From: Callorhinchus milii
Taxonomy: Eukaryota
Assembly (NCBI RefSeq): GCF_018977255.1
Contig: NW_024704742.1
Location: forward strand, 54,624,001 to 54,688,000
Length of the DNA: 64,000 bases
Direction of reading: 5' to 3'
The position numbers were made by a program, and so were the translations under genes. Shown piece after piece: positions 4,073 through 60,235 of the stretch (positions are counted from its first letter, which is position 1; each line of letters begins with the position of its first letter). The notes beneath the pieces were generated by a model. That model saw only the letters and a program-made list of their open reading frames with translations. It did no database searches and was not told where the DNA came from.

Positions 4073-4115
4073 TAATGTCACTCCTGTCAGGGAAGAAATA
4101 TTTTTAAATGTTCCA

Positions 4116-10063: not shown

Positions 10064-10144
10064 TAACAGCCTTTTGTGTGGCACCTTGTCAAATGCCTTC
10101 CTAAAATCCAAATATACCAAATCTGTGATGTGGTACTCATTTGT

Positions 10145-10884: not shown

Positions 10885-11735
10885 AGAAACTGCCCTGGTC
10901 AAGGTCACCAATGACATCCTGACCATCTGTGACCAGGGCTCTCTCTGCCTCCTCGTCCTCCTCGACCTATCGGCAGCATTCGATACGGTCGACCCTGAGC
11001 TGTCCTTTCTCCCCCATATCCGCACCACAACTGGCACCACCTTCCATCACCTCCGGAATGTCGCCAGACTACGGCACTACCTCACCCCTCACGCTGCTGA
11101 AACTCTGGTCCACGCCTTCATCACCTCAAGGCTGGACTATGGGAACTCTCTCCTCGCCGGCCTTCCCGCACCTCCCTCCACAAGCTGCAGGTCATTCAGA
11201 ACTCTGCAGCTCGTGTACTGTCCCGCACCAGGCTTCGCGACCACATCACTCCCACCCTCGCTCGCCTCCACTGGCTCCCCATCCCCCAGAGGATCAAATT
11301 CAAGATCCTCACCCTCACCTACAAGGCCATTCACGGCCTTGCTCCCTCCTACCTCTCCGACCTACTATTCCCCTACCTACCTGCCCGTACCCTCCGTTCC
11401 TCTGGCTCCGGTCTCCTCCAACCGCCCCAACCGCCCTACTATCGGTGGCCGGGCCTTCAGCCTCTCAGCCCCTAGGCTCTGGAACTCTATCCCCCAGTGC
11501 CTTCGCCCCCTCCTCCCTTTCCTCCTTCAAGGCCGGTCTCAAGACCTTTCTTTTTGACCGTGCCTTCAGCTCCCCTCTCGACTCTCTACCCCCTCCTCGC
11601 TCCCTCCCTTCCCTCCCCTCACCCTGACCATTTCCCCCCTGCTCGGGTCCTGACCCAACTGTACAGCGCCTTGGGACGTCCTCCCGACGTGAAAGGCGCT
11701 CAATAAATGGAATCGTGTTATTGTTGTTATTGTTG
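10885..11735 (+). mobile_element. 5'-truncated, internally deleted L2 LINE nested in CR1
   Basis: Encodes TETALVKVTND, LDLSAAFDTVD and SRLDYGNSLLAGLP. Has the L2 3' stem-loop and (TTG)n tail. TSD TAGAAC at 10879-10884 and 11736-11741. Confidence 0.93.
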
Positions 11736-13202: not shown

Positions 13203-13812
13203 TTAGTAGTTTAAAGCCCTTTCTACCTCCCTATTTATTCGCGTAGCCAGGACATTTGTCCCAGCCCTATTTAGGTGGAGCCCATTCCTTTGGAAAAGCT
13301 CCCATCTTCCCCAATACTCGTCTACTTGTCTCCCTGCCACGGCTACAGAAAACTGTACCAGTCCTCTCGACTGTCTCATCCCCAATAAGAATTACATTTT
13401 TAACCTCCCGCACAGGGGTGTTGGGGTCAGTTTGTCCGTCTTCCTCGCAGATTTCCTTGTCCACACAGGTTGCCAATATTTCATACCTGTCAGACAAGGC
13501 TAAAGTCTGGGATTCTTCAGCTCCTCTCTTTCGGGAACGCTTGCCTGCCCGCCTGACTGTCACCCAGTCATGTCCGTCGCTGCTACATTCTTCTTCCTTG
13601 GGACTCAGGGGAGTGTCCGGCTCCAGGATAAAGCTGTCCAGGACGTTTTCTCCATCCCTAATGCTGCACAGCATCTCCACCTGAGACTCCAGCTCAGCTA
13701 CTCTCAGCTGGAGCTCTCTGATTTCCAGACACTTGCGGCAGACGAAGTCGCCCGGACTTAAGGCGCCCTCCATTGACTCCCACATGTGATAGACTCGCAG
13801 TTTACCTGCCAC
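13203..13812 (-). pseudogene. CR1 ORF1 remnant (zinc finger/leucine zipper + partial SGNH esterase)
   Basis: CRKC plus LQLRVAELESQV zipper, VILIGD (GDS-like block), and C-terminal NGLHLNRAG (DGLHL-like) in another frame. Confidence 0.85.
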
Positions 13813-13929
13813 ACCATCTTCACAAACTTTATATAGATACGAGAATAACAATTGAATATCCAAAGAGCTGAATCAGTCACTGTTCAATCATCAAGGCAGG
13901 GATTAAAGAACTGTCAGGATTTAATAAAC

Positions 13930-15420: not shown

Positions 15421-15566
15421 TATCATTTCAAATGCAAGGATTATTACTATTATTATATTGTTATTATCCAGAAATGGTCAGGTAGTTTTGGACCCAACCA
15501 TGGTTTCAACGTTAAGCTGTATATCTTTGAGTATCATCGGTGCCAACAACATATCAGAATGATCGC

Positions 15567-15680
15567 TTTTTTTGGTCAGCTGGGTGTCTGACACATGTGG
15601 AAACCCATCACCATTCTTAAGAGTATCCAAACTAAACTGAGATTTCCATGCATCCCACCTACACATGGAAATTCCTGTTA
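15567..15680 (-). mobile_element. Unclassified A-tailed repeat, copy 2
   Basis: T-run followed by GGTCAGCTGGGTGTCTGACACATGTGGAAACCCATCACC. Confidence 0.75.
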
Positions 15681-16879: not shown

Positions 16880-17251
16880 CAGCATTTTTGCCACACAGCT
16901 CCGGTTAACTCTGCAAGCCACAGCCCTAGTGGACAGGGTAATCCTTTTTGGACAAGTGATGCGAAGCTTTCCAGAAAGTGTTCATACTAGCAAATAATGT
17001 GGTTTTAGCTGATTAAACTCCAGCAGTACCACAACACACACCCAAGGCTTGGCTCCTATCTGTGCTTAATACTTTCTGGTATGAAATAAGCGAGGTGTAT
17101 CCCTCTGGAGACAGAATGCACACTTCATTTCAGACAAATGGGAATTTTCCATGTGTATGTGGCATGCATATGTGGATCGTTTGGCCTGATTTGGGTGCTC
17201 TTAAGCATGGTGAAAGGTCTCCGTAGGTGTCTAATACTCTGTTGACCAAAA
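16880..17251 (+). mobile_element. Unclassified A-tailed repeat, copy 3 (long)
   Basis: Shares TTTTAGCTGATTAAAYTCCAGCAGTACC with the copy at 42230, and the 3' end with all other copies. Confidence 0.7.
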
Positions 17252-17554
17252 CATAATTTGTGCCAGCAAACAGCTGGAGATCTCCATGCTTGCTATTCCA
17301 TTCCAAACCATCATACCCAGCAACTTCACAATTGGAACTCCAGGAACACCTGTATGGTTGGTTTGAAATCTGTGAATACAATTGTGAACACCTAAACACA
17401 AATAAATATTCAATATGTTTAAAAAATTCTAAATTATTTACATTTTGAATAATATGCAAATTACAAATACATGTCTAAAATGTTTTTTGGAATTTACTAT
17501 CAGAAAAATATAGTTGCAACTTTCTGAATAGACTTTGGGTGATGGAATTCCACT

Positions 17555-23385: not shown

Positions 23386-24138
23386 AATAAACACCTGACT
23401 TGTTCACTGATACAGTTAACATTGCATTGTTCGATACAAGCTATGCTAAACAGAGATAGAGTACATTTTTGTCCAATTTACTGTTATTGGGACATCGAGC
23501 TCCTACAAATGTTTTTCTTAAGGACTCAGAGACGATGACACAGATACTTGTATCATTAAAGCTTATGGTCATGGACTAAATCCAAGCTGTGTTTCTGCGA
23601 TGATGAGAGAAGAGGTGCTGCAAGAGCTGGAGCTGCATTTTGTTTGATCCACATTTCAAGGATATCAGATTCCAAAACTGACACCAAAAGCAGGCTGCAC
23701 CATAAACTCCAGGACATTTTTCATATCATACCCACTCAATCATCTTGGAAGTTTTCCTCATCCTGAGATAAGATCGGGAACTAAAAATGTAACCCCATGT
23801 GATGTTTCATTAGATCAGAGAACTACATAGGTCTAACATAAATATTTAACAGATATAATTTTATCTTATAAAGCCAGCCACATGCATTTCGGGTAAGATA
23901 TTAAAACAGTGTAATGCACATCAAATATTGCATTTGAATTGGAATGAGAGATTCCAGGTTTGTACAACTGAGAAAAGCACTTCAAAATTAAGGTTCCAAA
24001 AATGATATGAGGATGGAGCAGGAATGTAGGATTAAATAGCTCTATTGAGAGAGTTGCATAAGTACAGGCAGATTGGTCCAAACGGCAGAAATGTGTTTAA
24101 TTCCATCGCAATTGTCCAACTGGAAAAAGTGGATAATG

Positions 24139-24280
24139 GGAGAGAGTGCACATTCCAGTCCAATACATGGGAATTTCCATGTGTAGGTGGGATACATGGA
24201 ACTCTCAATTTGGTTTAGTTGATTTTAAGCACGGTGATGGGTTTCCACATTTGTCAGACACCCAGCTGACCAAAAGAAAA
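24139..24280 (+). mobile_element. Unclassified A-tailed repeat, copy 4
   Basis: GGTGATGGGTTTCCACATTTGTCAGACACCCAGCTGACCAAAAGAAAA. Confidence 0.75.
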
Positions 24281-25550: not shown

Positions 25551-27861
25551 GGTTCAGTTTATACTTCACACATTTTTCACCATGACAATGCAGACTGTTA
25601 ACCTTTTGTAACTGTGTCTTGGGTTGCCAACACAAGGGTGCAACCTCTCCATGTTAACATGAGTACATGACATGGGAGGTCAATAACCAATTACACAGCT
25701 AGTACAGAGGTAATAATGCAGCTGACATAATGTAGATAACTGGAGGCAGTTCTCCTTGTCCCCCAATCAAAGCATTACCTCAGGGGAGCGTCTACTTGGT
25801 CGTTTTACGAAGCTCCTGAATGTTCAATTGGACAAGGTGAAAATTCAGCACATGAGCAAAGAGCAATTGCTGGAATATCATTAAAGCCACAGTGTTTCAG
25901 AACTGCATTTTTTTCTTGCACAAATTGGGCCTAAAACGACCGACCAGTGACAGAAACATTACCTGCAAATCTACTTTGAAGCAGTTGAACTTTTTGTAGC
26001 AGAGATCAATATCAGCCACACACAGTTTGTTTGCTTACAACACACTTCTGTTCCTTGCCTCAGGTTCCTGCCAATCAAAAAACAAGAAGCTGAGGTAAAA
26101 GATTATGTCAAGCAGACTCAGTTGCTCTGGCAGGAACGGAGGCTGTTTTAAGCATTTTGAGTGTAGAAAGCTTTTATAGTATGTCCAATCCCTGTGTTGT
26201 GACAATACACTGTTAACAAAATAATGTATCCAGTTTTCAGGAACTCACACTAACCAAAATCCAGTGAACCCAATGCCAATCCCAGAATTTTGCCTATTTT
26301 TTTTGATTTCCACCATTATCTTTATTTAATGTATCCCTAAAAATTGAATCTCACATATAATTGACCTTGCCAAAAATAATTAATCGTCCCAACTTGTCAC
26401 TTACTCACTTGACACAGGTTTTCCTCAGCATTGTTTGTGATAATGTAAAATCATGCTGATGTTACAAAGTTATAAAACAGTTAATGTAATGGTTTTGGTT
26501 AGCTAGAAAATTATAACATTTCTCCCAATGTTCCCTTAAAAAAAGAACTGACAATTTAAAGGCCTTGCCCAATGAAACAGTGGAGGTTTACAAAGTAGTG
26601 CTTAAAGGTTTAACAATCAGTTCTTGTTTTCAGTTTGGTTCATATTTTTAGTTCACAATTGTAAAATATGAAACAACAGTAACTTTTTTTTAGGCGTGAC
26701 GAATCCTTTGCCATCAATTCCCTATGAGACCAAAAACAGGATATTACTTAGAGGAAAGTCAAGGAATTTATTAGAAAAATGAAATTAAATTGAAAGAATC
26801 ACTGCACTAGGGCAAAAAGTACATTCCCCACAACATTGTAAAATAAGATGATTGGTCATTTTTAACCTACCCTTTGGTACTGCAAAAGAAGCCAACCATT
26901 CACTGCCATGATGAGTCTCCCTGCTGGAAAAGGTCTAATAAGGAAATGGACATTCTGGTCCAAGCTCCCACTTGCTCATCATGATATTATATGGGAATTG
27001 GCATCTCTCTTATTTCTGTATGCCAGTCATAGCATTTAAATCCAAATAAAGTGCTTAATGTTGGCTGGGACTCAACCCCATTTGTACCGATCTCAGTAAT
27101 TGTTCAGGAATACTAGAAACAATGCCAGTCCCTGCTTTAGATAACAAGAGGCAGCCAAAGATGAACCCACTCATAAACCTCTTAAATGGGTCTATTCCAT
27201 TCAGGAGTCTTAACATGGCCACATCCAACAGGCTTCTGGTCCACGTTAAAAAGTTGGAATTTTTCCAATCAGGCAAAAGAAATGATAAATTACTTTTGCT
27301 GTATGTATGGAGCTAATACTTTAGATGAAAAAGTTTCCATATCGTTCCCATACCTCTACCCACAACACCCCAATCAAGTACTATTCTCTGTTAGCCTAAA
27401 CTAGAGACCAGAGTGTAGTAAGAAGATCCAAACATAACTAGTAAATTTACAAAGTAAATGCAAATGACCCTGCTCCACATAACAAGAGGCAGCCAAAGAT
27501 GAACCCACTCATGAACCTCTGAAATTGGACTTTCCAATTCAAGAGACTTAACATGGATGTAAAAGGCGCTATACCAAATGTTTGCAAGTAAGTACATAGA
27601 GTTATGATATGAGTTGAGTTTCTGACAATGTTATGTGTCATTAAAGGACAATATGAAAATGAGAAGAATTTATTGGTTTATATTGGGATGTGTGAAATGC
27701 TGGCAGGGACAATATCCCTGGTTCCCCTGAGCAGCTGGTGATAGGACTTTCCTTGTGGCACAAGCTAGGAACTTTTCTGTCAAGGATTTTCTTACAAATA
27801 GCAGCTTGCATGGACATTTCAGAGGATGTCAAGAATGAACCACATAATGTGGGTCTGGAGT

Positions 27862-27945
27862 TGTGATAGAGAGAGGTGTGATAGAGAGAGGTGTGATAGA
27901 GAGAGGTGTGATAGAGAGAGGTGTGATAGAGAGAGAGAGATAGAG
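27862..27945. repeat. 15-bp minisatellite (GTGTGATAGAGAGAG) x about 5
   Basis: Direct reading. It explains the repeated SLYHT in ORF 27641..27994. Confidence 0.95.
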
Positions 27946-29490: not shown

Positions 29491-29520
29491 TAGATATGAT
29501 TATGATTTACCAAATCTTAC

Positions 29521-29834
29521 GGAGTCCTGTAGCTCAGTGGTTAGAGCACTCGCTTTGCAAGCGAGAGACCTGAGTTCAATTCCAGGCAGGGCAAAACCTT
29601 GGACAAGTTTGCTTACTCCACACGCCTAATAATAATCCCTCCAAAAAACAAAACAATAATAAATTGGTCATTTTCAATCCACGACTATTTGTGGAACACT
29701 GCTGTGCACAATTAGCTGCCACGTTTCGCCCACAAATATACAGTCAGTTCACTTTACAGTATGTTCTGTGAAGCGCTTTGAGACGTCTAGAAGACGTGAA
29801 AAGCGCTATATCAAATGCAGGATTATTATTATTA
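29521..29834 (+). mobile_element. Full-length young tRNA-derived SINE (short subfamily)
   Basis: GGAGTCCTGTAGCTCAGTGGTTAGAGC head, (TTA)n tail, TSD CTTAC at 29516-29520 and 29835-29839. Confidence 0.92.
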
Positions 29835-30062
29835 CTTACTGATGTGGCATTAAGTGAGGTCCACCACTAGAGGTCATGTAACAGTGAAAATTGTTTCATA
29901 AAATTGATATTACAAGGAAACTTTCTTACAGAATTCAATATAAAAAATGCGTCTTAGTTCAGAGATTAAAGTTATGAATTTGTGCTAACCCTAAATTCTT
30001 ACTCAAATATTATTTTCCCCACAACCTATCCTTTATTTAAATAAATTAAATAAATAACAATA

Positions 30063-30385: not shown

Positions 30386-32267
30386 GGAGGGTGTAAATTT
30401 GTGTCTTGCCACTCTATAGTGAATGGGTTAAGCTACCATCACCTTACCTTCTGAGCTGTATCTCTTAAAACATTTTATATTATATTCAATGAGTTGAGTA
30501 AATATATTATCCTAATTTTGCCTACAAAATACAGTCACTACACTTCACAGTAAAATCTTGTGAAGCAGTTTGAGACAATCTTGATGACGTGATAAGGTGC
30601 TATAGCAAATGCAAGTATTATTATTTATAATTTCCGTGTAACTCCATGATATTGCATTTTAATATTCATAGTTTTGATTTCCTCAATCATTTGTTGTTTA
30701 GCTCCGTGTGCTATTATCAGCACCTAGGGACATCCTCCCAACATGAAAGGCACTAAATCCAATTTGTTTGTTTGTTGTTGTTTTGGTTGAACCCCATCAA
30801 TCAATCATCTCATTCCTCATCAGTCGATTCCTATGGTTTACTTATATCATTATTTCTCTCGCATGGTAGCACATCTCTTCTGACAATTTGTTTTGTGTAA
30901 TTTAGTTGATCGCAAGCATATTGTATTGTATTTCACCAACACCAGCATCATCTGATTATGACACTCGAGTTGGTATCTCATCTCATAATCTCTGCCCTCA
31001 GGGCCAGTTAATGGAATCATTTGTGAAATAGGGATTGGGGAAAACAAGTTATTCCTGTCACTTCACCAGCTAGAGGCCTGACTCTCATTACTTGCAGAAT
31101 GAAGAATATAATTCCCTCTTGGTAGTTGTCCTATAACTAGTGGCTTTCCAGTCATAATTGGAAATTATTATACAAATCCCTCAGGCTAGTTGGTCTCTGA
31201 TTAGACCTGAGTTGAGTCACAAACAAGAGTGCATCCTGTTCCCGCGGGTTTGGTTGGAGCTTCCAGGTCTTTGTAAAAGGGGACAGCACAATGCAAGAAT
31301 GTTAAGGGAGCACCAAAACTTACTTAGAAAAACAGTTCCAAAAAACAGCAGTACAATGAACTTAGAGGTTCATGTTTCTACCTCACCCCCGCAAACAGCT
31401 CATTTTTAGACTTTATTGTCTTTTTTTCCCAAATGTTCAAAAAGGGAAGAGAGGGGGAAGAGAATGCGAATGCACATTTTCCCTCTTGTCAACTTTGACA
31501 GGTTGTTGGCATTGTTTCCTGATTAATGTCTCACTTATGTCAAGTTTGGAACATTTACCAATTTTCTACTCTTTCAATTGATCTAAAATAACAAAATAAT
31601 TGTTGAAAATTTAGATAATTAAGAGTGAAAATAATGTTCGTACTGTTTGGAAATTAAAATATTAAGACCAGACAGGTATTGTAAAATCTTAATAAAACTG
31701 TCCAATCACGGACGGAAGGAATATGTGTTTAAACAAATGTTTTCACTTTGTTCCACAGAGAGATTAGCCCTAACATTCTTGTCACAGCATAACCCATACT
31801 TGCCTGGGACTTGACAGTGTCACAAGTTGATATCTTCATAGATGTTTAGTGTGAATGTGAGCAGTTCCAGCATTCGGTTGTTTTGGTAAGACATAAAGAT
31901 GTGTTGGGTGGCTGTCAGCAAAACGTTCAAGAAGACGACTATAAAAGTCAACTTATGAAAGAACACAGTCGTCATTTGAATGCTACTTTATAAGGTGTAC
32001 GTGAGACAAATTAGCTATTTAACACTCCTATAATTCCAAATGATAGGTTATAGAGTTCCATTATGGAATGATTTTGCCTCAATCCTCTGCCTCGCACCCC
32101 ACTACCCTTTTATCTTTAAATCCCACTTTAAAATCTACCTCTTCAACCAGACCTATGATCACCTCCCACAACTCCCTTGTTCAGCACCAACGCTTCCTCT
32201 ATGCAGAGCTCTTGCATTAAAGGCACTACGTAAATCCAAATTGCTTTTATTGTTTTTGTTGTTAGTG

Positions 32268-32450
32268 TGTCAGCCTGGCTCAGTTGGTAGCACTTGTATC
32301 TGAGTCATAAGGTTGTGGGTTTAAGCCCCATGTCAGGACTTGGAACCCATATAGTCTAGGCCATCACTCCAGTCCAGTACTGGGGTTATGCTGCATTGTT
32401 GGAGGTGCCAATTTTCAAGGTAGATACTAAACCATATCTCATCTGCCTCT
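32268..32450 (+). mobile_element. Deu-type SINE 5' part
   Basis: GTCAGCCTGGCTCAGTTGGTAGCAC...CTGAGTCATAAGGTTGTGGGTTTAAGCCCC. Confidence 0.75.
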
Positions 32451-35771: not shown

Positions 35772-37189
35772 AGTATTTAATCATTAAATGTTTCTGGAAA
35801 TTAGGGTTTGAGTAATCAAGCAAAGCTTAGTGGATGTAAGGATGGAAGCAGACAAATTTTGGAACATCTTAAAGTCTCAAGTGCAATGATTCACGCGCCT
35901 ATTGTTGAGTGATTAAATGGGGCCACATTATTTTCTTATGTTAAAAAGTATTTTTTTTATTCAGTGGATCAAATTTGTAATCCATTTTCCGTGACAACAG
36001 TAGATATGACATCACTGTTGGCCTACAAATCTGGCACTATCCCCAAAAGATGGAAGATATGAAAAGAAGCAAATAGGGACACAAAGCGAGACAATTGTTG
36101 GAAAGGTATCATACAGTAAAAGCAGAAATCAGAATTTGGAAACAAGCCAGTTTTCTATGCCTTCTTTCAGCAAATACTCCAATCATCAGAGATTATTTTT
36201 CTAATTTTAAGAGGCTTACAATGCTTTAGCAACAAAGACCTGACTATAGAAAATTAGCTCTCATTCTGCAATAGATGGTGGTTTCGCTTTGGGAGATAGG
36301 ATTTATTGTCATAAAAAATACAGATTAGCAAACATCATACGAACTGTTATATTTAACATTATGGCAATTATGGCTGTAATTTTCTATTATTTGGCTGTAA
36401 TTTTATAAGCATCCCATAATAATTGGGTTCAATATATGGTTTCGATTAGTATAATACCACAACTTGCCTTCAATTTTGTTCCCCATTTTTGGTTAGCATT
36501 TGATCAATTGCTCTGTCCAGCAAAACACACGACGCTCCCTTTTTACGTAAACCTTATTGTTATTCATGTTGTTTCTGCCATTCCATTTCAAACAATGAAA
36601 AGAAAATTAGCAGGGAATTTCTTTAAATAAAAAAATTCAGCCAAGAAGAACAGGAATAATATTTGTTCTTAACTGCATGAGCTTTACCGTTTTGGAATTA
36701 CGCCAGGCCAGAGTTCTGCAGCTGCAGATCACACATTCCCACACAGGCTGACCCTATATCTATAACAAGACATCAATAGCAGGAAGAAGCACAATAAGCT
36801 TGCATGGCCTATCCCTACACTTCGGTCCACATGCACACAAAAGCCGGTAGGGATACTCAACCGAGGGTGTGCTATGTTAGACTAATACTTAAATTTGAAA
36901 AAAATGTTTAAAACAATCTGCAGTGACCACAGACACAGTAGGTAACAAGGCCATTAACTATATTTTTTCATTTCAAATCTAAACTTGAAGATCTTACAAC
37001 ACAAAGGATCACATACTTTATTCCCATCCTTAACTGGTATTCAGTCTTGCACTTTCTTACACTTTCTCTCTTTAGTTTGCTCTTCCAGATACCTCATTGG
37101 GAACTTTTACTGCCCTGTAAGGAAGTAAGCCATATAAATCAGGCCGATCTTAGATTGAAATCCACGGTCTGAGCTGAATTAGCTTTGCG

Positions 37190-37460
37190 TGTCAGCCTGG
37201 CTCGAGGTGGCACTCTCATCTCTGAAACAGAAAATTTTGTGTTGAAGCCCCACATTGGACTTTGAACTTGTATAGTTTAGGCTGACACTCCAATACAGCA
37301 CTGGGGATGTGCTGCATTGTTGGAGGTACCGTCCTTCAGCTACAGTATAAAATCAAGGTCCAATTTGCCTGTTCAGGTGGACGTTAAAGATCCAATGGCA
37401 CTGTTCATCAATCCCTCAAATAAAATTAATCATTCATCTCATGTTTCCCGGATATTGCAG
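37190..37460 (+). mobile_element. Deu-domain SINE
   Basis: tRNA-like head followed by TGCCTGTTCAGGTGGACGTTAAAGATCCAATGGCACT. Confidence 0.8.
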
Positions 37461-38920: not shown

Positions 38921-39062
38921 ATTATAAGTGCCAGAGGTGAAAGTCCCAATGCCATTCTCAATGGTGAAGTCAGAGAAGCTGAACTTAGACTGTGGATTTC
39001 CTTTCACTTCCAGCGAGTGGTATATCAGTGTTTTGAGTTTGTTTTGTTTAGCTTTTAAATAA

Positions 39063-39280
39063 TGACAACAACAATTTTACATGTCGGAAAGACATCTCAA
39101 AGCTCTTCACAAAGTCGACTGGGAGTCTGAGCTGGGGATGGGGGAAACTGAGGATGGTGTAGTGAGGAAAAAGTGACCAAAAGTGTAGTTGAAAAGATGA
39201 CGGGTGATAGGGTTACAGGAAGTTGCAAAGTTAAGGTGGGGTGAGACTGTGGAGGGATTTGAAAGGGATTAAAAAGCAAT
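39063..39280 (-). mobile_element. L2-type 3' fragment (old)
   Basis: ACAACAACAATTTTACATGTCGGAAAGACATCTCAAAGCTCTTCACA tail. Confidence 0.6.
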
Positions 39281-39814
39281 ATCTGGCACTGAAAGGCAAT
39301 GATCCATGAGCTGGAAGTCTAACACTTCAGACCTGACTTCTTCAACTTTGTATCGGAGAATCTGCCTCCAGCTCATTTAGTGTGTTAAATGACAGATGGA
39401 CTGTAAATCAGATCTCAATGTGCTTCTAAAGGGGAAAGGGGCTAGAAAGGATAGGACAAGTTAGATTGGGCTGGAAAACAAAATGAAATTAAATTAAATA
39501 AATCGAAATTTGACCTAACTAAAGGGTGAATATATATATATATTCAGAAATTACTTTCAATCTCATATCCTTATGATTTATTCCATCACTTTCATCTAAT
39601 CCAAGATATTTGTACACTTCATTATATTATTATTAGTAATAGTGGTAGTATTAGCATTATTGGAATAAAATATGTGATATTTCTTTACAGATTGAATAGC
39701 ACTTTCCTCAACACATTAAATCTGTTGTGAAACATCACATTTTTCGCCAATTATCTGCTGGACAAATATCAACCAAAGCTCTAGTTATCCAGTGAATCTG
39801 CTGAAAGTTGCATC

Positions 39815-40028
39815 TATGAGGGTGTTGGTCAGGTGAGAACAGGGTCAAGCTCAGCTGTGATGCCTTCAAGTCAAATAGGCAGCTAATGTTCACTGTCTAG
39901 ACCTGTATCTAAAGAATGGTTTACTAGATTGAGGTACTGGCAAGCTGCCAGGGCTCGTAGAACTGTACCCCAGCAAATATCAGGGCCTTCAGGTAATGAC
40001 TGAGTGGAAAAGGAAAGAAAATTGGGGG
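39815..40028 (+). mobile_element. AmnSINE2-like ancient SINE fragment
   Basis: GCTGTGATGCC, TCACTGTCTAG, AAGAATGG, GAACTGTACCCCAGCA and GCCTTCAGG occur in the order I recall for AmnSINE2. A related piece lies at about 32590-32685. Confidence 0.5.
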
Positions 40029-40220
40029 ATACACTAATAAACTGAGACAAAGGAAACAAAAACAGGTGAATAAAAGGGTCTACAAGACAAGCATAGATTT
40101 TTTTAAAAAATATTTTTAAAAACATTTTATTACAACAAGATGTTTTATGTGACATGAAAGGTGTTGCAAACATGCAAGTTGTTGTTTTGCATTCTGTTAG
40201 TTGTTCAGGGTTGATATTCA

Positions 40221-40440
40221 GGGCTGGGTGGCACAGTGGGTTAGACATTGGCCTTTCACCTCTGTAACCTGGGTTTGCATCCAACCCTGACTAATGGGAT
40301 GAATGTCTCCTTTGTTTGTTGACTTAAGAGACCAAATAAAACAAGTTTGTCAGGTCTAAACCCAGTTCTTTGGGGCTTCTGGCTCAAAGCACAAAACAGC
40401 CTGATTCAAACTCAGGAGAGCAGTCCTTAAGTGAAGTGAG
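40221..40440 (+). mobile_element. LF-SINE-like ancient SINE, 5' half
   Basis: tRNA-like head with GCCTTTCACCTCT, then GGTCTAAACCCAGTTCT and CACAAAAC, collinear with the recalled LF-SINE consensus. Confidence 0.55.
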
Positions 40441-41171
40441 GCTGGCTACTTTTAGCTGGTTAAGTACTTACTGGCATGTGTCACCATATCATTTTAAAAT
40501 CCTTTTAATACATTTCCAATAAAAACTTACAACTCTATCAGCCAAACATATTAATTATGGTTGTTTAGTCCTTATAAAGAGCTGATTATCAACACTAAGT
40601 AGGATCAGTCTCAGTCTTGTTGCAGGTGAGCAAACACAGTGGCTAATTGGACATCTCCAAAAATGCAAATTGGCTACAGTGGTAAATACCATTTGTACAT
40701 CAACAGTTTGTTTGTACAGTCACAATAGATCCAGCCTGTGTCAAACCTTCTCCCTCTTTCTCTTCCTCTGCTTCCCTTTCTCATTACTTTGCTTCCCCCC
40801 CTCTTTCTCCCTCTCCCTCTATGCATGTATATACTGTATGTATATTTTCTACACTGTATAAAATATTGTACATATATTAATAATAATCATTGGATTCAAT
40901 GTAACGCTTTATCACATTGTTGAAATGTTTCAAATAGCTTTGTAGGATTGTACTGTAAAGTGTAATGACTGTTTTTTGAGCTGAACATAGCACCCTATTT
41001 ACACAGCAAAATCCATTAAAATCATGCACGGAATAACCAATTGAATCTGAGGGATTGTAAATATATAATCATACCTTCACTGTAGCTAAAAATGTGATTA
41101 TGCACATGACCTCAAGTCCAGTTACCCCCCTTGTCCCATATCCCCTAATAACCTGACCTAACAAATATCTA

Positions 41172-41312
41172 GCAAGAGTTCTGACGAAGGGTCATGGACC
41201 CGAAACGTTCACTCACTTTCCTTTCTCCATAGATGCTGCCTGACCTGCTGAGTTTTCCCAGCTCTCTGTTTTTGTTTCAGATTTCAGCATTTGCAGTATT
41301 TTGAGTTTTTTT
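41172..41312 (+). mobile_element. Penelope-type terminal fragment with hammerhead-like core, 14-bp TSD
   Basis: CTGACGAAGGGTCATGGACCCGAAACGTT...GATGCTGCCTGACCTGCTGAG, flanked by CTAACAAATATCTA at 41158-41171 and 41313-41326. Sits inside a minus-strand CR1 3' fragment (about 41115-41350). Confidence 0.8.
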
Positions 41313-42229
41313 CTAACAAATATCTATCTACCTCCATCTTGAAAATGTGAATGGTTCAAATGTAATAAATACGGTGTTAAATGAAGGCCAGTTCTTGCCC
41401 ATTAGAATTTAGAGTGTTTACATCAGCATAACAACAGCTGAGAGGGAATTGTAAAACAAAAACTTTAAGTAAAATAATGTCAAAGGCTATTGGGAAAGGG
41501 GAATGGGATTAGAGTAGAAAGCAACAGTAATGAACTTACTACATCAGTTAGAAATTTACAACCTGTTTTCAGGCAGCAGAAATACAACATTTAGGTGACC
41601 CGATGTATTTGAAATCCAATATGACACTGGACTTCTGCTTTCTTTACTATATTGAGCTCCTCATCCCAGCTATGAATCAATGGGAGGGTTCTGGACAAGG
41701 CCAGGGGAGAGGTAGCACACAACAGGCACAATGGTATCTAATAAGCCAATAAAAAGTGCTAATTGTATTTTATCCTAATTTATCCTTTACATGCTTGTCT
41801 ACAAATAGTCAATCACTAAACTTCAGAGTATATCCTGTGAAGTACTTTGGGACACCTTCCTGAAAGGAAAGGCACTATATCAAATGTAAGGATAATTTTT
41901 ATTCTCTGATACCTCATGTGTAGTTAAATATTTCATGAGTTATGGAACTATAAATAAACTCCCTTCTTTTATTTAAAATTCATCTACTGACCTGATTTGG
42001 ATATGACAGAAACTCACTAACATGAACCTGTGTAACTAAGCGTGTGAATAGCTTTTTGTCATCTCACAAATCAAGTGTATACATAGTACGTATAAAAATA
42101 AAGCACCTTAAACAATTACAGCTTTGGTATAATCCTTGAAACATTCAATTTTATTTAAGGATGTGGTTATTAGAGTCAAATAAACGACTTAGATATTTTT
42201 GCATAATTAAAATACAATATTGTTTTATT

Positions 42230-42556
42230 TCCTTTGCCAAAGCTCTAACGGATAAGGTGGTCCAAGCTGGGCAATCAATGGGAAGCTTGCCAGACAGTGG
42301 TCTCAATCACAAACAATGTAGTTTTAGCTGATTAAATTCCAGCAGTACCCCAACTCATACTCTGGAATCCCGAAGCATAGGCATTCATCAACCTGCACCT
42401 CTCTGGAATTAAACAAATAGGATGCATCTCTCCAGAGAGAGTGCACATTCCAGTCCAGGCAAGGAGAACATTTCCATATGTAGGTGGCATACAAATCTGG
42501 AACTCTCAGTCTGATTTGGATACTCTCATGGTGATTGTGTTAGCTGACCAAAAAAA
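42230..42556 (+). mobile_element. Unclassified A-tailed repeat, copy 5 (long)
   Basis: Homologous to 16880-17251 and ends AGCTGACCAAAAAAA. Confidence 0.72.
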
Positions 42557-42576
42557 TATATTTTTAACCAATTAAC

Positions 42577-42861
42577 CAAGCGAGAGACCTGAGTTCAATT
42601 CCAGGCAGGGCAAAACCTTGGGCAAGTTTCCTTACTCCACACGCCTAATAATAATCCCTCCAAAACCAAAAACAATAATAAATTGGTCATTTTCAATCTA
42701 CGACTGTTTGTGAGACATTGCTGTGCGCAATTGGCTGCCGCGTTCGTCCACAAATATACAGTCAATTCACTTTACAGTGTGTTCTGTGAAGCGCTTTGGG
42801 ACATCCTCCCGACTTGAAAAGCTCTGTATCAAAATGCAAGGATTATTATTATATTATTATT
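42577..42861 (+). mobile_element. Young tRNA-derived SINE, 5'-truncated
   Basis: Highly similar to 29521-29834 from CAAGCGAGAGACC onward. Confidence 0.9.
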
Positions 42862-43786
42862 AAAATTTCCTCAACACAGTTTTCCTACTTTTTTCAAATG
42901 TAAAGAATGTTTACTCAGATGCTGTGCATCCTTTACACATTATTTAGTATATAGTGCATAAAACATGGATACATATCAAAACACATCAGTAAATCTAATT
43001 TTTGTGGGGGATCCATTAGAATAAAGGAATTGTTACTAACTTGAAGAACACTTCCCCTATCTGCCTCCTCTCTCCTTATCTATCTACAAATGACATAGAA
43101 GTCATGTTAAGTAGGTCTTAGAAGAGCAATGGGCCATATAGGATCATGAAAAAACACTCTCTGCAAAACAAAAACTCTCAATGTTGGTTACACATCAAAG
43201 GTTTGCGCTGAGAATCACATTTCTTCTTTTGAAATGCAATGTAATGCTTAGAGTAAGTCAATTCATGAAGCATTATGTCAATGTATAATATACCCTAAGA
43301 AAAACATCTTGTACAGGCATTCAATTAGTTCTGAAATTCAGACAAGATCCCACATGAACTTAATAGTCCCAGGTTATTTCAAACAGTGTCTCTCTCTTTG
43401 CTTTGTCTGGATGGTGAATTGCTTTCAGTAGCTACCCTGCTGTGTGGGGCATTTCTTTTCATTCGGCTCTCAGACTGCAAGATATTTCACATCTTAGTCA
43501 TGTAAAATTGACTCCCATTTTAACCCCTTAAATGAGAAATGGAACACAATATAGCTGAACTTATTGACCTAAGGTGTTTATAATTTATTTGCTTAAACAT
43601 AATGTTATTTGCAAACACAATTTGTTGGCGTGTCTGGCCATACTAAAATAAATTCCTTTTTCATCATATTAACTCAATCATTTATAAACCAATACGATAC
43701 AAAGTTACATTTGTAACCCTAAAAAGATATTTTGTACTGCGAAAAAAATGTATATATGTGAATAATGTATGATGTATAGATGTGAC

Positions 43787-44090
43787 GGAGTCCTGTAACT
43801 CAGTGGTTAGAGCACTTGCAAGCAACACACCTGGGTTCAATTCCAGGCAGGGCGAAACCTTGGGTAAATTTCCTTACTCCACACACCTAATAATAATCCC
43901 TCCAAAACAAAACAATTGGTCATTTCAATCCACGACTGTTTGTGGGACACTGCTGTGCGCAATTGGCTGCCATGTTTCGCCCACAAATATACAGTCAATT
44001 CACTTTACAGTCTATTCTGTGAAGCGCTTTGAGACGTCGAGAAGATGTGAAAAGCACAATATCAAAGCAAGGATTATTATTATTATATTA
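43787..44090 (+). mobile_element. tRNA-derived SINE (short subfamily)
   Basis: GGAGTCCTGTAACTCAGTGG head and (TTA)n tail. Confidence 0.9.
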
Positions 44091-44926: not shown

Positions 44927-46349
44927 AAGTAGAATACATGAAAGAAATGGGTGTAATGAGAAAACAATGTTGAAGTCAAGTAATGAACTCATTTTTTCCA
45001 TAAAGTGGTATTTATTGTTGATTAGCGAACAGGAAGAAAACAATTCTCTGTTATAATTACAGGGATCACCCTATAAACAATAACCCCAGAAGCAAAATAA
45101 ATGTTCTAAATGCCCTAAAATCTGACAGGTGCCTCAATTCATAATCTGTGGCCAATGGTTTGGGAGATCTTGACTTCAATAATGACTAAAAACAAACCTG
45201 ACAAAATGAATGGTCAGGCTTTCACCAAGGTTTGTGGAATATTGAGAGATTTAATTGCTTTATAATAACCAGGTTGCTAATATTACATCTCAGTGAGTAT
45301 AAAATAGACAGCAGTTGCATTGTAATAGACTAAGTGCTTTGACTTTCAAGACAGTATTGTATTTCATCTCAGTTGTCGAGACTCACCACTTTCTCCAGGT
45401 TTCAAATAATAGCACTCCCTATCTCCACCTTCCCTCCCCCCCCCGCCCCCCCAGGCCCCCACAATAGAAGTCTCCCACCTTAAAGATGAAAAGCTGGTAG
45501 GAAAACTACATTGTGCCTTGATGAAATACATCAAACTTGGTGACTGGATTTTGATCTGTAGGAGACCCAGTGCTGGTGTATCGGGAGGGGGGAGGGGGTC
45601 ATATGGAACTTGTTGACGTTATCTAATGATAACCTTCTGAAAGGTTCCTGTCATCAGTTTTTGTTTATAGTACTATTTGCATAATACCCTCAACATTTTG
45701 TAGAACAGAACCATACAGGTGCGATGTGTTAAAGAAGCTGAACTTGAAAAAATAAGTAAAAATGAAAGTCAACAATAGCTGTAGCACTGAAAGCGTTGTT
45801 GGGTGTCCTATAGATGTCAGCTTTCAATCAGAAACTTGTAGGAGCATATCTTTATCAATAGGATAGTTAGCTTTATCGGCTGGCCCCTACTTCGGGACAT
45901 TTCTAATTATGTTTTTTAAAACAGCACTACAAAATCAGAAAAGGAAAGGGTACTGATGATTTCTCACATGTAACCAAGTTTGTTCCCATTTGATAATTAT
46001 TTATAAAGCATTGGTAAAATAATTTAGGCAAATAATAATGTCTATTGAACTCTATGAGTGTATCTTTTGAAACTGTTTTCTGGAAGTAATATCACACAGG
46101 CAAAAGATGAGTACAATATTTTAATAATTACTGCTTTTTTAAATTAGTAAGCAATTTAAAACTTGGGAATAATGTACCTGGAGCACACTTGGGACCATCA
46201 TTGATTGTCAATTAGCTTGACTGTCATTTTTGACATTCAAGCACCTTGGGGCGCTATCTTATGTGAGGGGCGCTATATAAATGCAAGGTGTTGTTTTGAC
46301 TATGATTATTATCACGATTTTCACCATCAAGTGTAAATGCATTTGTATC

Positions 46350-46715
46350 TTCTTTTTGGTCAGCTGGAAGTTGACACATATGGAAACCCATCAACGTGCT
46401 TAAGAGTATCCAAACTAACTGAGAGTTCAACACATGTATGCCACCTACCAATGGAAATTTCCCTATGTCTGGAATGGATCTGTACTTTCTCCCTGGAGAG
46501 ACGACCCTGCTCATTTAATTCTGAAGAGTATTAGGCACATGTTGCCAGAAGCGTGCATTGGGATACTGCTCGAGTTTAACAAGTTAAATCTATATAATTT
46601 GTCATTGATAAGCAGTGACTGGCAAGCTTCCCACTGCTGTCCAGCTGGGGCAATGGGTAGGCTTAACTGTTAGGGCTTTGGCTTGCAGGTTAGCGGGAAC
46701 TGAGTGGAAAAAATC
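46350..46715 (-). mobile_element. Unclassified A-tailed repeat, copy 6 (long)
   Basis: TTTTTGGTCAGCTGG...GGAAACCCATCA...CTTAAGAGTATCCAAACTAACTGAG. Confidence 0.72.
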
Positions 46716-49739: not shown

Positions 49740-50105
49740 ATAATAAATATATTTGTAGCCAAACCCAGCAGTCAGTTTGTACACAGCAGTGCCCCACAAA
49801 CAGCCAGCCATGAAATGAACAATCATGTTTTATATGGGGGATGGTTGGACAGGAATAACGGAAGAAATTCACTTCTCTTTTTAAATACTATGGGACCTGT
49901 AACGTACACGTGAGGAGGCAGACAAATCTTGGTTTAACATCTCATCCAAATGACGGCACCTCTGACAACACAGGACACCTCCAGAACTGAATTGGAGACT
50001 CAGCCCTCTGTAGACTGTGAATTCATAGTCTCAACATAGGGCTTGTACCCACAACCTTCTCACTTCTCAGAGGCAAGAATACTTAAAACTAAGCCAGGCT
50101 GACAC
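49740..50105 (-). mobile_element. Deu-domain SINE
   Basis: GGTTTAACATCTCATCCAAATGACGGCACCTCTGACAA, with head AGCCAGGCTGACAC at about 50100. Confidence 0.78.
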
Positions 50106-51685: not shown

Positions 51686-52024
51686 ACTTTGCCAATTCCT
51701 CTTAATACTGGTTTCAATTATTATGTGAAGGAACCAGACCTAGAACAAATAGCTAGCGAGGCTTGAGTTACTCCACTGAAAATGCACCAGCTTGTTGGCC
51801 AGCCACAAATTCCTTGCTTCTTCCTTGACCATTTTATATTAATAAGCAAATCTATTTGGCTTCAGCACTGACAATACTGGAAATGTTTTGCCCACTATCA
51901 GATAAAGAGAAACTTTAATAGTCATGGAGTTATTTTATGGTGATTATGAGTCAAGGTGGTGGAATGTAACCTCAATATTTTAAATGTATGAGCAGATTGA
52001 ATGGACCTTTGCTAATTATGTAGT

Positions 52025-52304
52025 GGAGTCCTATAGCTCAGTGGTTAAAGCGAGGGACCCGGGTTCGATTCCCGGTAGGGTGAAACCTTCGGCAAGTTTC
52101 CTTACTCCACACGCCTGATAATAATCCCTAAAAAAAAGTTGGTCATTTTCAATCCACGACTGTTTATGGAACACTACTATGCTCAATTGGCTGCATTTCA
52201 CCACAAATATAGCCGTTCACTTTACAGTATATTCTGTGAAGCGCTTTGAGACGTCTAGAAGATGTGAAAAGTGCTATATCAAATGCAAGGATTATTATTA
52301 TTAT
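52025..52304 (+). mobile_element. tRNA-derived SINE (short subfamily)
   Basis: GGAGTCCTATAGCTCAGTGG head, B box GGTTCGATTCC, (TTA)n tail. Confidence 0.9.
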
Positions 52305-54089
52305 ACTATGTGTTTGTAGTGAATCATCATCATGAGTTACTGACATATAGATTCAATATTTTTTCACTCAAAATTGAAACATAAACAAAAATAGTCTTAC
52401 AGTGAATAGGGCAGATTGACTGCAGAAGATCACAAATGCAATGGTAAAGGGGGAACCAGGAAACTGGGGGTCCAGGCTCTGCGTGCTTCAGGGTATTACT
52501 TGGTATTGTTCTAAATCAATGTCTCTAAATTTGTCCTGACATGCATCTTGTTTACAATGGCTGAAATGTGTTACTTTTCATCCATGATATTTCAGTTCAT
52601 TTCACATCCAATTCAAGTTTCAAACACAAGATGAAAATGTCATTGAAAAGACATAAGGAAGACAACAGATTGTGTGTTACAAAACTTTTCATTGATATAA
52701 TATTCTCCTTTTTGCACAATGGGCTGTTACAAAAATCTACTTTGGTTTATTGGCCAGGTGGAGCCCCATCACTATATTAAGAACTATCCAAACTGGAATG
52801 AGAGTTTAACATATGTACAGAAATCCTCAATGGTCCATTGTGCCAAAAGTAAATTGATCTCCATTCTACTCTCTGTCTTAATGACCACGAGAAATGTCTC
52901 TTATTAGAAGCCATTGGATGTTTGCCTAACTTTTCCACTTCTACTTACAATCACCACCGAATGCACTTCCAGGCAAAACACTGTCGGAAAATTGCCAAAC
53001 ATGTTCTAATCTATTAGTAACTGTCCGTGATAGAAATTAGGCTACACATAGCTTTCCTGCCAACAATACCCATTAGTGGCTGCCAAGAGGAAAATCTAGG
53101 CTTAATGCTCTGCGGCTAAACTTGGCTTTTATATCTTGGTATCTACTTACATGTAATGTGATGAGACAAGGAAGTGAATTTTATTTGTGCATTTTAAATA
53201 AAGTTCCAGCTTTGTTTGTTGTCAGAAAAGGCTTGTGAGTTTAATTCACTCTGCACTAAAATAAGCCAATTTCAGAACATGTACAAACAGAAATATATCG
53301 CAACAGAATCAGATTAGTGTTCTGTTTAAAGCTACTCAAAGCATAGTCAGAGGAGGATTTTAATCTTTAATTATAAGCATTTTTATCTAGCGCTGGACAT
53401 ACAGCCTGTGCAACCCAACACCACTGAACGAAATTACAGGTTTCCAGGTCACACGATTAAAAGGGCAGAATTGCGCCACAACATTTTTTTCTTTTTAATA
53501 ATCTCTTCATGCAAAATTATAGAGTCAATAATAATGTACTAAATGAAAGTCAAGCATTAATTTTACAAACATCAGAAATTATCTACTGATTACACTGTTA
53601 ATTCCTATTTTTACATATCATCTCTCCTGACAGCAGTGATCGCCTTTCATATCATTCTATTTGTGAAATAGAACAAAACACACAGAATAAGCCACTGTTG
53701 CAGTTTTATCTCTGTTAACCTCTGTCATTTTATTCGTTCTCCACAACATACAGAGCTTAATTACTTTCAGAATGCAAAAAGGTTCACTACTAAGATTGCA
53801 TGCAATTTTTCATGAATCTGCTCACCATTCTTATTTATTTACTGTCCCATTTTCTACATATTATGCTTGTCCCACCAGTCCACTTATCCTCTAGTATCTA
53901 TCTATTTCATTGGTCAACATTGTGGAAAAATCAACGGATGTATGTTGGGGTCCTCCTGTCCATACTAACATGGTGGAGAGTACAACATGTTACATAATAA
54001 GATTGGCTGATGATACCAAGCTTGGCTGATTGGCAGAACCTAGAGGGGCAGACCAACCACTGGGAGAAAGGATTCCTCACACTCAGCTC

Positions 54090-54418
54090 CTGTTAACTCA
54101 GCAAGCCAAAGCTTTAACATGTCGGGTGGTCCTAGCTTGACAAGGAGTTGCAAACTATGTGGTTTGGTTAGTTAATATCCAGCATTAATCCAATGCTCAC
54201 TATAGAGTCCCCAAGCTTTGGTTCTTGCCAACCTGCACCTAATACCGCCGTAAACAAGGTACATCCCTCTAGGGAGAGAGATTGCATTCCATTTCAGACA
54301 CAGGAAATTTTCCAAGTGTAAATGGCCTCTATATGTAGAACTTTTACTAGTCTAGTTTGGGTACTCTTTAAGTATTATGATGGGTTTCTGCATGTATCAG
54401 ACCCGGTTGATCAAATAA
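54090..54418 (+). mobile_element. Unclassified A-tailed repeat, copy 7 (long)
   Basis: TTTGGGTACTCTTTAAGTATTATGATGGGTTTCTGCATGTATCAGACCCGGTTGATCAAA. Confidence 0.68.
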
Positions 54419-55687
54419 AGGCTCAATTTAGATGCTGTACATATAGGCTCTGTAGATACTTCTCCCCAATAGCTTTCCATTATCTTGTTGATCTATATCT
54501 TTTTGAAAGATTTACTGCTATGTTTGCCTGTATAACACCATTCACTTTAATTTTTAATCAATTTAACGTTTAAACCTCTTCAAGATATTTACATGAAGGG
54601 ATGTGTAAATACAAGTTATTAGAGTATTATCCATTTTAATATGATATGTATAGTTTGTCAATTTTAATTGTATTATATGAAAATAATTTCTATAACACTG
54701 AAACAAAACATAATTTTTTTTATAAAAAGAATATAAAAACAGGGAAAACGTCATAACCGTGACTGCAATCAATCGAGTACCAATCATTAAGACTGACAAA
54801 TGTTTCATAATGTATTTATGGTTCAAACAGGGGAATCAATCAGAAATCACATATATCTACCAATGGATACCTAGAAGGTTACTGTGCCAGATACAAATTC
54901 TAAACTTATTTTCTAAAAGTATTTTTTTATGTAGGACTTTGTTTGATCACATTTGAAACTTTAGAATTGATCCTTACTTGTTCACTTTGTTGGACTATTT
55001 TATGGGCCCTCTTTCAGAATTTAATATGTATTTATTAGTTCACACGTCTTTCAGAATATATTCAAGGCTGGGTGGTCAGATGCAATCAAATTTATTCAAA
55101 TGTCTGTGTTGGGGAGAAAATACACGTGATGTGATTTTAGTGTTAAATATTTAATCTATTATTATGTATCTTCTGCTGCTGCTCTGTAGGTATTAGAATG
55201 CAGTTATAAAAATAAAGGAATGATTGATTGTACCCATATTTGACAAATATATTATGCACTGTACCTTGTCAAAGCAATAAATCTGTATGTATTCAACCTC
55301 CAGCAGTTGAAATATGATATTTAGTACACCTACCACCCTCCAAGCTAAAAACAATGACCATGTTATACTTTTAACAAGCATTATTTACATTAAGGTCCAC
55401 TTGATATCAGATAACTCATGCACATCACCAAATCCCGTGAAGAGATAAGATGATACAAATAGCCAAAACCTTGTTATACTTACAGGACTCTGTTATAAAA
55501 CAGAGATAGAAAATGAAAGCTGCCACACCTTTATTGAACCACTGCCAGATTTGTTTGTAAAACATATAGCAACTCCTGAAGTCTAAATTCAACACTGTTT
55601 AATTAATTTTTCAGGCTAGAATTATTCATTTTCCAAAGTCAATTGAAAATAATATGCAGATAATATGTTTTGCATTCATTTTTTATG

Positions 55688-55938
55688 TGTCAGTCTGGCT
55701 CAGGTAGCAGCACTCTCACCTCTGAGTCAGAAGGTTGTAGGTTCAAGCCCCACATTGAGACTTGGAACTCATATAGTCTAAGTTGACACTATAGTGCAAT
55801 ACTGGGAAGTTGCTGTGTTGTTGGAGGTGCTGTCCATCGAATGGGTCATTAAAATGGGTTTGCCCATTCAAGTGGTTGTTAAAGATCTGATGGCAATATT
55901 TTGAAAATAGGAAGGAGTTTCTCCCATTGTCCTGGTCA
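55688..55938 (+). mobile_element. Deu-domain SINE lacking 3' tail
   Basis: GTGTCAGTCTGGCTCAGGTAGCAGCACTCTCACCTCTGAGTCAGAAGG head, with Deu core running to TGTCCTGGTCAAC. Confidence 0.8.
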
Positions 55939-55939
55939 A

Positions 55940-56186
55940 CAGCACAGAGAAGTGTCCCACAAACAGTCATGGATTGAGTGACCAAATTATAATTTTTTTG
56001 AAGGAATTATTACCCCCAGAAAGGCAATCCGCCAATCAACTAACAACCGGATTCCTACTTACTGCTAGGTAAACAGAGGCGTGTGGACTAAGGAAACTTG
56101 CCCAACATTTCACCCTGCCGGGAATCGAACCCTGCATCTCTCTTGCTTGTGAGGTGAGTTCTCTAAACAACAAGCTACAGGACTCC
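55940..56186 (-). mobile_element. tRNA-derived SINE, long subfamily, lacking 3' tail
   Basis: Homologous to 35530-35771, including the extra internal block. Confidence 0.85.
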
Positions 56187-58254: not shown

Positions 58255-58697
58255 TGACAGCCTGGCTCAGTTGGTAGAACTTTTGCCATTGATTCAGAAG
58301 CTTGTGATTTAAGACCACTTCAGGTCTTTGAATTCACATAATCTAGGCTGACATTCCATTGCATTGCTGGGGGGAGTGGGTACTGCCTTGTTGTAGGTGT
58401 TGATCTTTAGATGAGGCATTAAATCGAGGCTCCATTTGCCTATTCGGGTGATCATTAAAGATCCCACGGCATTACTTGCAAAGAGAAGGGAGTTTCTCCC
58501 AGTGTCCTGTCCAACAACCCCCCAGATATATTTTGTGCTTCATTTCAGGGCTTTTTATGGAACATTATGGCATACAAGATGCCTGCTCCATTTACCTACA
58601 AAATATACAGTCACTTCACTTTACTGTAAATCCTGTGAAGTGCTTTGAATATCTTCCCAAAAGTGAAAGGCACCATATCAAATGCAAAGATTATTTT
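58255..58697 (+). mobile_element. Full-length Deu-domain SINE
   Basis: tRNA-like head, TAAAGATCCCACGGCA...GGGAGTTTCTCCCAGTGTCCTG core, tail CAAATGCAAAGATTATT. Confidence 0.8.
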
Positions 58698-59919: not shown

Positions 59920-60235
59920 ATCAGCCTGGCTCAGTTGGTAGCACTCTCGCTTCTGAGTCAGAAGGTTGTGAGTTCCAACCCCATGTCAGACTTGGAACTC
60001 ATACAGTCTAAGAGGACTCTCCAATGCAATGCTGGGGGTATCCAGGGCCAATAATTCCCCCAACTAAAATGGTCACTAATTCCATAGCTGTTTGTGGCGC
60101 ATTTCTGTGCAAAAATTCGCCATCCCATTCACCCACAAAAAACATATACAGTCAGTCCATTTTACAATATATCCTGTGTTCGGACCTCCTCCTGATGTGA
60201 AAGGTGCTACATCAAATGTAAGGATTATGATTATT
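59920..60235 (+). mobile_element. Deu-type SINE with internal deletion
   Basis: TCAGCCTGGCTCAGTTGGTAGCACTCTCGCTTCTGAGTCAGAAGG head and L2-type tail. Confidence 0.78.

Follow-up and report, generated by a model that had tools for sequence, protein, structure and literature searches.

A 141-bp insert with a minimal hammerhead motif in Callorhinchus milii, probably the truncated end of a Penelope-like element

Minimal hammerhead ribozymes (min-HHRs) have been defined by a core motif that is found in the flanking repeats of Penelope-like elements (PLEs) and in thousands of single copies; the monomer was reported not to cleave, and cleavage of the dimer was low (PMC4209133). A PLE protein has been shown to cut DNA rich in A/T, to work mostly from RNA that is unprocessed and to help the ribozyme cleave (Frangieh et al. 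2024, PMC11167929). In the anole PLE the hammerhead cuts at +26, and reverse transcription begins between +111 and +118, which is 85-92 nt past the cut (PMC11167929). Strong 5' truncation and inverted partner copies are standard for PLEs (PMC8557442, PMC3846280, PMC8969392). Minimal motifs are also admitted as retrozyme hammerheads; tandem hammerhead repeats with this motif are described in one cartilaginous fish, and one of nine dimer constructs cleaved (bioRxiv 10.64898/2026.07.22.740005).

The window, which is the whole stretch of DNA that was analysed (64 kb from Callorhinchus milii), is repeat-rich animal DNA with many dispersed repeats. An insert of 141 bp is found at 41172-41312 between two exact 14-bp direct repeats. 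The 14-mer CTAACAAATATCTA was located by repeat search, with no strand assigned, at 41158-41171 (left copy) and 41313-41326 (right copy). The match cannot be extended on either side, 11 of its 14 bases are A/T, and there is no third occurrence on either strand of the 64-kb window. Exact direct repeats of at least 14 bp that lie 50-600 bp apart number 4 in the window versus 48 in 200 shuffles (0.24 per shuffle).

The features of the insert are all on the plus strand. Five junction bases (41172-41176), presumably filler, are followed by a minimal type I hammerhead motif at 41177-41214 with a predicted cut after 41209, as located with the descriptor and the contig alignment described below. Sequence conserved in the family extends from there to 41305 (41215-41305, contig alignment) and is probably the end and tail of a PLE pseudo-LTR. 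A run of seven T at the 3' junction (41306-41312) closes the insert, in agreement with the terminal T-run reported in a sequence-only reading of the same DNA. The sole open sense frame has 23 codons and starts from the ATG at 41233; internal T runs are present at 41269-41273 (T5) and 41299-41302 (T4). The 3' end of the insert is 103 nt past the predicted cut site. The search for tandem arrays that had been proposed in the sequence-only reading was negative within the 64-kb window: no second copy of the insert was found, and the insert lies outside all six tandem arrays detected.

Public contigs from 4 of the 24 listed runs were aligned to positions 41010-41610 at 80% likeness. Runs X4 and X16 are from organism A, X7 is from organism B, and X12 is from organism C. 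The numbers of contigs aligned were 8,150 (X4), 17,977 (X7), 18,682 (X12) and 2,912 (X16), with the contigs of the LINE target included. X16 is merely presumed to be RNA, and nothing about transcription, strand or circles can be read from its contigs.

The target was identified as the end of a LINE ORF2 fragment of CR1 type on the minus strand. Its left part (41094-41171) comprises the last codons and the 3' part of the ORF2 fragment, and its right part (41327-41355) belongs to the same fragment; both outer edges are approximate, the left one being taken from depth bins. With the insert and one repeat removed, the minus strand reads FKMEVDRYLLGQVIRGYG, which aligns straight over the junction with the end of the ORF2 of the window's own LINE at 8951-9022 (54% of 24 residues, E 5e-5). 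Public contigs that match from 41313 on continue leftward in a sequence like 41128-41157 in 118 records of X4 and 115 of X7, and joints from 41169-41170 to 41321-41334 bypass the insert in X7 and X12; these uninterrupted targets are paralogous LINE copies, which are distinct from an orthologous empty site. The contigs of X7 and X12 give no cover at 41367-41492. One contig of X4, a sample under the same species label, spans 41010-41204 without any difference, and therefore the left junction of the insert exists in X4 as well. The duplication of the target site is genuine: in other copies of the CR1-type LINE whose end was the target, the sequence runs through unbroken. The claim of a 141-bp unit with a perfect 14-bp target-site duplication is thus borne out by exact repeats, which cannot be extended, and by the uninterrupted paralogous targets.

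The window's own LINE is located at about 8950-13200 on the minus strand and is taken to be of CR1 type from its domain order and motifs. It contains an endonuclease domain (PF03372, 11730-13202) and a reverse transcriptase domain in two parts (PF00078, 9238-10164 and 10444-11046). This LINE is broken by a tRNA-Ala-headed SINE near 10145-10465 and by a LINE-like fragment near 11050-11730, and short (AAT/TTA)n runs are present at junctions inside it. A frame of 201 codons upstream of the LINE (13270-13872) has no Pfam match. The SINE family has five near-full copies with 77-92% identity (10145-10472, 29501-29846, 42577-42860, 43768-44090 and 52023-52312), and a tRNA-Ala head was called by ARAGORN in two of them. 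Another repeat family has seven copies (4107-4198, 15555-15675, 16917-17260, 24138-24278, 42236-42540, 46345-46682 and 54251-54420), six of which have one sharp end with a T-run (A on the other strand) and a variable other end, like a 5'-truncated retroposon. A dispersed family with 69-81% identity appears at 32266-32409, 37189-37400, 49955-50105, 55686-55941, 58255-58516 and 59921-60043. An 89-bp direct repeat (87%) is present at 27130-27218 and 27468-27556, 338 bp apart; after it, at 27858-27935, comes a tandem array with a unit of 15 bp (5.2 copies, 98% identity).

The hammerhead motif was read at 41176-41214 as originally claimed, with both boxes, stem II, the palindrome and a stem I paired at four of five positions. 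The core CUGACGA is at 41181-41187 and is followed by one extra A at 41188, which corresponds to the additional base that separates positions 9 and 10.1 in the described motif. Stem II has 5 bp and a 3-nt loop (41189-41201), and its pair G41189-C41201 corresponds to G10.1-C11.1. GAAA (41202-41205) precedes CGUU (41206-41209), and a palindromic ACGU replaces helix III, so that the core has the form CUGANGA plus GAAA-N-N'-UH with a palindromic 15.2-16.2 segment. The unpaired position of stem I adjoins the predicted cut site: helix I of 4-5 bp closes at the cut site in the family majority, and the copy at this locus is without the first pair. The site is the single match in the window to a descriptor of the minimal type I hammerhead; 200 dinucleotide shuffles gave one core match and none with at least four of five stem I pairs. 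By these sequence criteria, the locus belongs among the minimal hammerheads of PLE type.

A covariance-model check had also been suggested, and here the outcome was negative: an Rfam scan of 39000-43500 to E 10 gave 12 matches, all far under the gathering scores and none of them a hammerhead. The best predicted fold of the insert pairs the core boxes away (z of -1.36; 20 of 200 shuffles equally good), and neither the best predicted monomer fold nor the best dimer fold is catalytic. The catalytic dimer is predicted to lie 13.4 kcal/mol above the best dimer, for the locus copy and for the family-majority letter alike, and the predicted cost of the stem I mismatch is 2.4 kcal/mol; the energy models leave the hammerhead core unscored, and folding cannot judge activity. 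Cleavage would be unlikely for a single copy that lacks a nearby partner and in which the first pair of stem I is broken.

The contigs of three species contain a very abundant family of which the insert is a member. In X4 the highest summed depth, 732,575, lies over 41220-41240, versus 7.3 on the unique flank; these depths are not copy numbers. At 41210 the family has G in 95-96% of the depth in all four runs (95.8, 95.6, 96.4 and 95.0%). With this G, stem I gains a U-G pair adjoining the cut site, and the stem I mismatch noticed earlier is therefore real and a change private to the locus copy. The locus copy differs further from the X4 majority at 41254 (76%) and 41284 (90%), and small indels near 41264 and 41284 also set it apart. 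Transitions of CpG type appear at 6-17% of the depth at 41201, 41202 (core G12), 41206 and 41207 in all four runs, and these point to neutral decay of unselected genomic copies. For 41181-41187 and 41203-41205 no alternative letter is listed at 10% of depth or more, although absence from the listing is no proof. The CpG at 41185-41186 within CUGACGA has no transition listed at 10% or more in the four runs, unlike the CpGs at 41201-41202 and 41206-41207; clipping near the alignment starts may account for this quiet CpG.

Other searches for relatives gave the following results. A 21-22-base pattern from the tail matched four loci in genome contigs, none in viral contigs and five in metagenome contigs. 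The nine loci were dropped as chance matches; all are G+C-rich (56-68%) and have just 21-23 bases in common with the tail. A scan with the hammerhead pattern returned nothing in public genome contigs or in viral contigs, and a blastn search of plasmids with the insert gave no match. Among the listings of papers on Penelope and hammerheads in sharks, elasmobranchs and Callorhinchus, none describes the insert family. The supplementary tables of species and motifs of PMC4209133 and bioRxiv 10.64898/2026.07.22.740005 may already list the family.

The 5' ends of the family were analysed from the loose ends and the pieces of the aligned contigs. Loose ends before 41177 were detected in 179, 265, 380 and 67 contigs of the four runs, and these agree on a common consensus ending in CCCTCCCAACATGCCCC (30 letters only, with a modest agreement of 0.40-0.48). 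In one of the X7 joints listed, the CCCTCCCAACATGCCCC letters immediately precede the start of a variant hammerhead. Because the loose ends before 41177 share the consensus, some of the family appears to extend further in the 5' direction. The loose ends before 41178 (109, 167 and 212 contigs) and before 41179 (186 contigs in X12) have agreements of 0.34-0.37, with no common flank for those before 41178; many copies start at the edge of the ribozyme with unrelated flanks. These figures are from the rows listed, with 899 further rows, and they are not copy proportions since contigs collapse identical copies. Among the rows listed the 5' ends are non-random and clustered at 41177-41179; no large group of them falls on the cut site (41210), and no loose end on 41172.

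The 32 longest pieces were listed (48,581 further), of which two are the locus itself and the other 30 are from the family. Twenty-one of the 30 start at 41176-41181, two match 41176 and none starts before it. The first 4-5 bases of the insert are consequently not established as family sequence. The same absence leaves unsupported, for the locus copy, an origin of the 5' junction bases as a short spliced first exon. The 3' ends of the 30 pieces are mostly at 41277-41286, and four reach 41308-41310 in the T-run; these positions are confounded by contig breaks and by the indels of the locus copy. Endonuclease-bearing PLEs can have two classes of 3' end, owing to an optional tail extension of 30-40 bp. 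Eight of the 15 joints listed (41 further) connect 41176-41180 to 41213-41229 on the opposite strand, and they appear in X4, X7 and X12. These are head-to-head copies of the family with the junction on helix I, located elsewhere than this locus.

The common upstream sequence of the family, taken as the loose-end consensus plus 41177-41178, is rich in pyrimidines, and its terminal CAG lies at the 5' strand of helix I; the tail holds a pyrimidine run within 41261-41280 that ends in CAG at 41278-41280. The intron of the D. virilis Penelope element ends at the 5' strand of helix I (PMC4209133). In the parent element, either CAG-ended pyrimidine stretch might act as a splice acceptor.

The insert is probably a short, dead-on-arrival copy of the end (pseudo-LTR and tail) of an abundant endonuclease-bearing PLE. 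This assignment is made because the family has longer members and inverted forms, because there is no Pol III promoter, and because 103 nt separate the cut from the 3' end. The target-site duplication is at an A/T-rich site, and inverted 5'-truncated partner copies are present in the family in three of the four runs, although not at this locus. In the proposed mechanism the PLE protein would nick A/T-rich DNA with a 14-nt stagger, and reverse transcription would start inside the PLE RNA, at a point ~100 nt 3' of where the hammerhead cuts. Copying would pass through the hammerhead while it is uncut (or re-joined) and would stop at the 5' strand of helix I, either by pausing or fold-back or where the 5' end of the RNA is reached. 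Repair would then add a few filler bases and duplicate the target. On the preferred reading, the insert represents the first ~136 bases copied by the PLE reverse transcriptase, ended at helix I. Both sides of the scissile bond are present in one copy, which fits an uncleaved RNA template. Fold-back or pausing on the self-complementary helix I is favoured as the cause of the stop because of the inverted joints. We infer the PLE protein, the priming site and the reason for the stop. The large groups of 5' ends at 41178 and 41179 are not what plain random truncation would give, and they count against this reading.

Endonuclease-bearing PLEs have an ORF with a telomerase-like reverse transcriptase and a GIY-YIG endonuclease next to the pseudo-LTR. 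Searches for coding sequence did not tie the family to such a PLE frame, which counts against the preferred reading. The sense frame read through its stops (42 residues) gave nine candidates in a protein search, none at E 10 or better, and no hit among 1.84 billion representatives at E 0.001; both are weak tests with a query of that length. A crude pattern scan of the window returned no PLE-like motif.

The sequence-only reading had interpreted the locus as a stand-alone, retrozyme-like equivalent of a SINE. Of this interpretation, the retro-inserted unit, the true target-site duplication and the minimal hammerhead of PLE kind are retained. The stand-alone SINE equivalent is not: the copy is single in the window, it has no Pol III boxes and only a minimal core, and some family members extend further upstream. 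Even with one mismatch allowed, neither an A box nor a B box of Pol III was found in the insert, in a scan in which a control SINE showed its B box. The only tRNA-like heads called by ARAGORN in the window are at 10148 and 29524, with none at the insert, and no tRNA-, 7SL- or 5S-derived head was found. The locus is not a SINE, because it lacks a Pol III box, and by published definitions it is not a retrozyme, because it is not in tandem (PMC7229834; bioRxiv 10.64898/2026.07.22.740005).

What remains of the earlier idea is a discrete non-autonomous unit of ~135 nt that starts from helix I, owes its transcription to read-through or to a few master loci and is mobilised in trans by the PLE protein. 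Such a unit would account for the clustering of 5' ends at 41177-41179, for the starts of most of the longest pieces listed and for the very high abundance of the family. PLEs can act in trans on sequence flanked by pseudo-LTRs (PMC3846280), and non-autonomous PLE derivatives are known (PMC8557442). The explanation is nevertheless unlikely. The insert has no internal promoter, and its T5 and T4 runs would halt Pol III early. A cleaved read-through RNA would be without the 5' half of the ribozyme, longer family members exist, and the clustered positions are the fold-back points of the inverted joints, which supply a mechanical cause. It is equally doubtful that the ~135-nt unit from helix I is a promoterless self-propagating element, the smallest PLE-dependent parasite with a hammerhead and a priming site only; if this were true, such a unit would have multiplied in related cartilaginous fishes to at least tens of thousands of copies.

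Derivation from a non-LTR retrozyme would require a tandem array elsewhere, whose dimers self-cleave to give linear or circular RNA, part of which is inserted as a monomer by the PLE reverse transcriptase. A retrozyme source is conceivable because tandem copies with this motif are known from one cartilaginous fish; the non-LTR retrozymes of the one sampled have a mean unit of 363 bp, their monomers are often found dispersed, and a relationship links these units with the pseudo-LTRs of PLEs (bioRxiv 10.64898/2026.07.22.740005). The duplications of non-LTR retrozymes are longer than 4 bp (PMC7229834), and one X7 joint among those listed goes back from 41238 to 41216 with the hammerhead start between. 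Against this, tandem units with at least two hammerheads are absent from the locus and no tandem copy is present in the window, and none of the 15 joints listed connects a 3' end to a 5' start. Described retrozymes have canonical type I hammerheads with helix III and loop-loop contacts, which this locus lacks, in repeats of 150-450 bp, and minimal motifs are assigned to PLEs (PMC7229834). Fixed ends with a duplication would also fit a set, target-primed start better than entry at any point of a circle. A retrozyme monomer is thus quite improbable here.

Chance, on whose side stand the lack of an Rfam match at the hammerhead and an unremarkable best fold in which the core boxes pair elsewhere, is extremely improbable as the source of the motif or the duplication and is refuted for the duplication and the presence of the motif, catalysis aside, since no shuffle produced a motif that includes stem I, the absent pair is restored by the letter of the family majority and the paralogous targets are uninterrupted.

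The idea advanced in the sequence-only reading and the preferred PLE-end reading lie on one continuum, because the preprint reports tandem repeats, dispersed monomers and a PLE origin of retrozymes. As read here, the insert is one more dead copy of a kind of element already described in many animals. The family is a large natural data set on the role of a weakly active minimal hammerhead in PLEs, and it also bears on how the 5' ends and inverted arms of PLEs form. Should the short unit propagate itself, it would be a minimal intermediate linking PLE pseudo-LTRs and retrozymes. Even without self-propagation, the pile-up of 5' ends and fold-backs at helix I would be a genome-wide trace of the points at which reverse transcription by PLEs stops, and it would allow a test of whether PLE insertions are shaped by the fold of the hammerhead rather than by its cleavage.

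The min-HHRs of PLE pseudo-LTRs (Cervera and De la Pena 2014, PMC4209133) have, like the insert, a type I core without helix III and a palindromic 15.2-16.2 segment, an extra base before helix II, the G10.1-C11.1 pair, a helix I of 4-5 bp and thousands of dispersed single motifs. Helix II, at 5 bp in the insert, falls short of the 7-8 bp of the schistosome min-HHRs, a point against the PLE-end reading, and cartilaginous fishes are not among the hosts named in the accessible part of PMC4209133. The Poseidon PLE of Anolis carolinensis (PAc) resembles the insert in an end ~90-100 nt past the cut, an uncleaved template and an A/T-rich target (PMC11167929). The ORF of PAc starts at stem II, whereas the sole open sense frame of the insert starts at 41233, past the cut site; the 3' end is U-rich in the insert and an AC-rich stem-loop in PAc, and the likeness is one of description, not of sequence comparison (PMC11167929). 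Inverted 5'-truncated PLE insertions share with the insert family head-to-head forms, a duplication of ~10 bases and strong 5' truncation (PMC3846280, PMC8557442). Unlike these, the insert has no inverted arm, and its duplication is 14 bp versus 8-10 bp in the rotifer examples (PMC3846280, PMC8557442). Schistosome SINE-like elements of the Sm-alpha type are, like the insert, short dispersed repeats with a hammerhead, but they have a promoter ahead of the ribozyme (PMC6765202) and none was found in the insert. Animal non-LTR retrozymes are likewise short and non-coding, with a type I hammerhead, longer duplications and a proposed PLE origin (PMC7229834; bioRxiv 10.64898/2026.07.22.740005); their defining features are circular RNA and units in tandem that include two or more hammerheads, whereas the insert is a lone unit with a minimal core.
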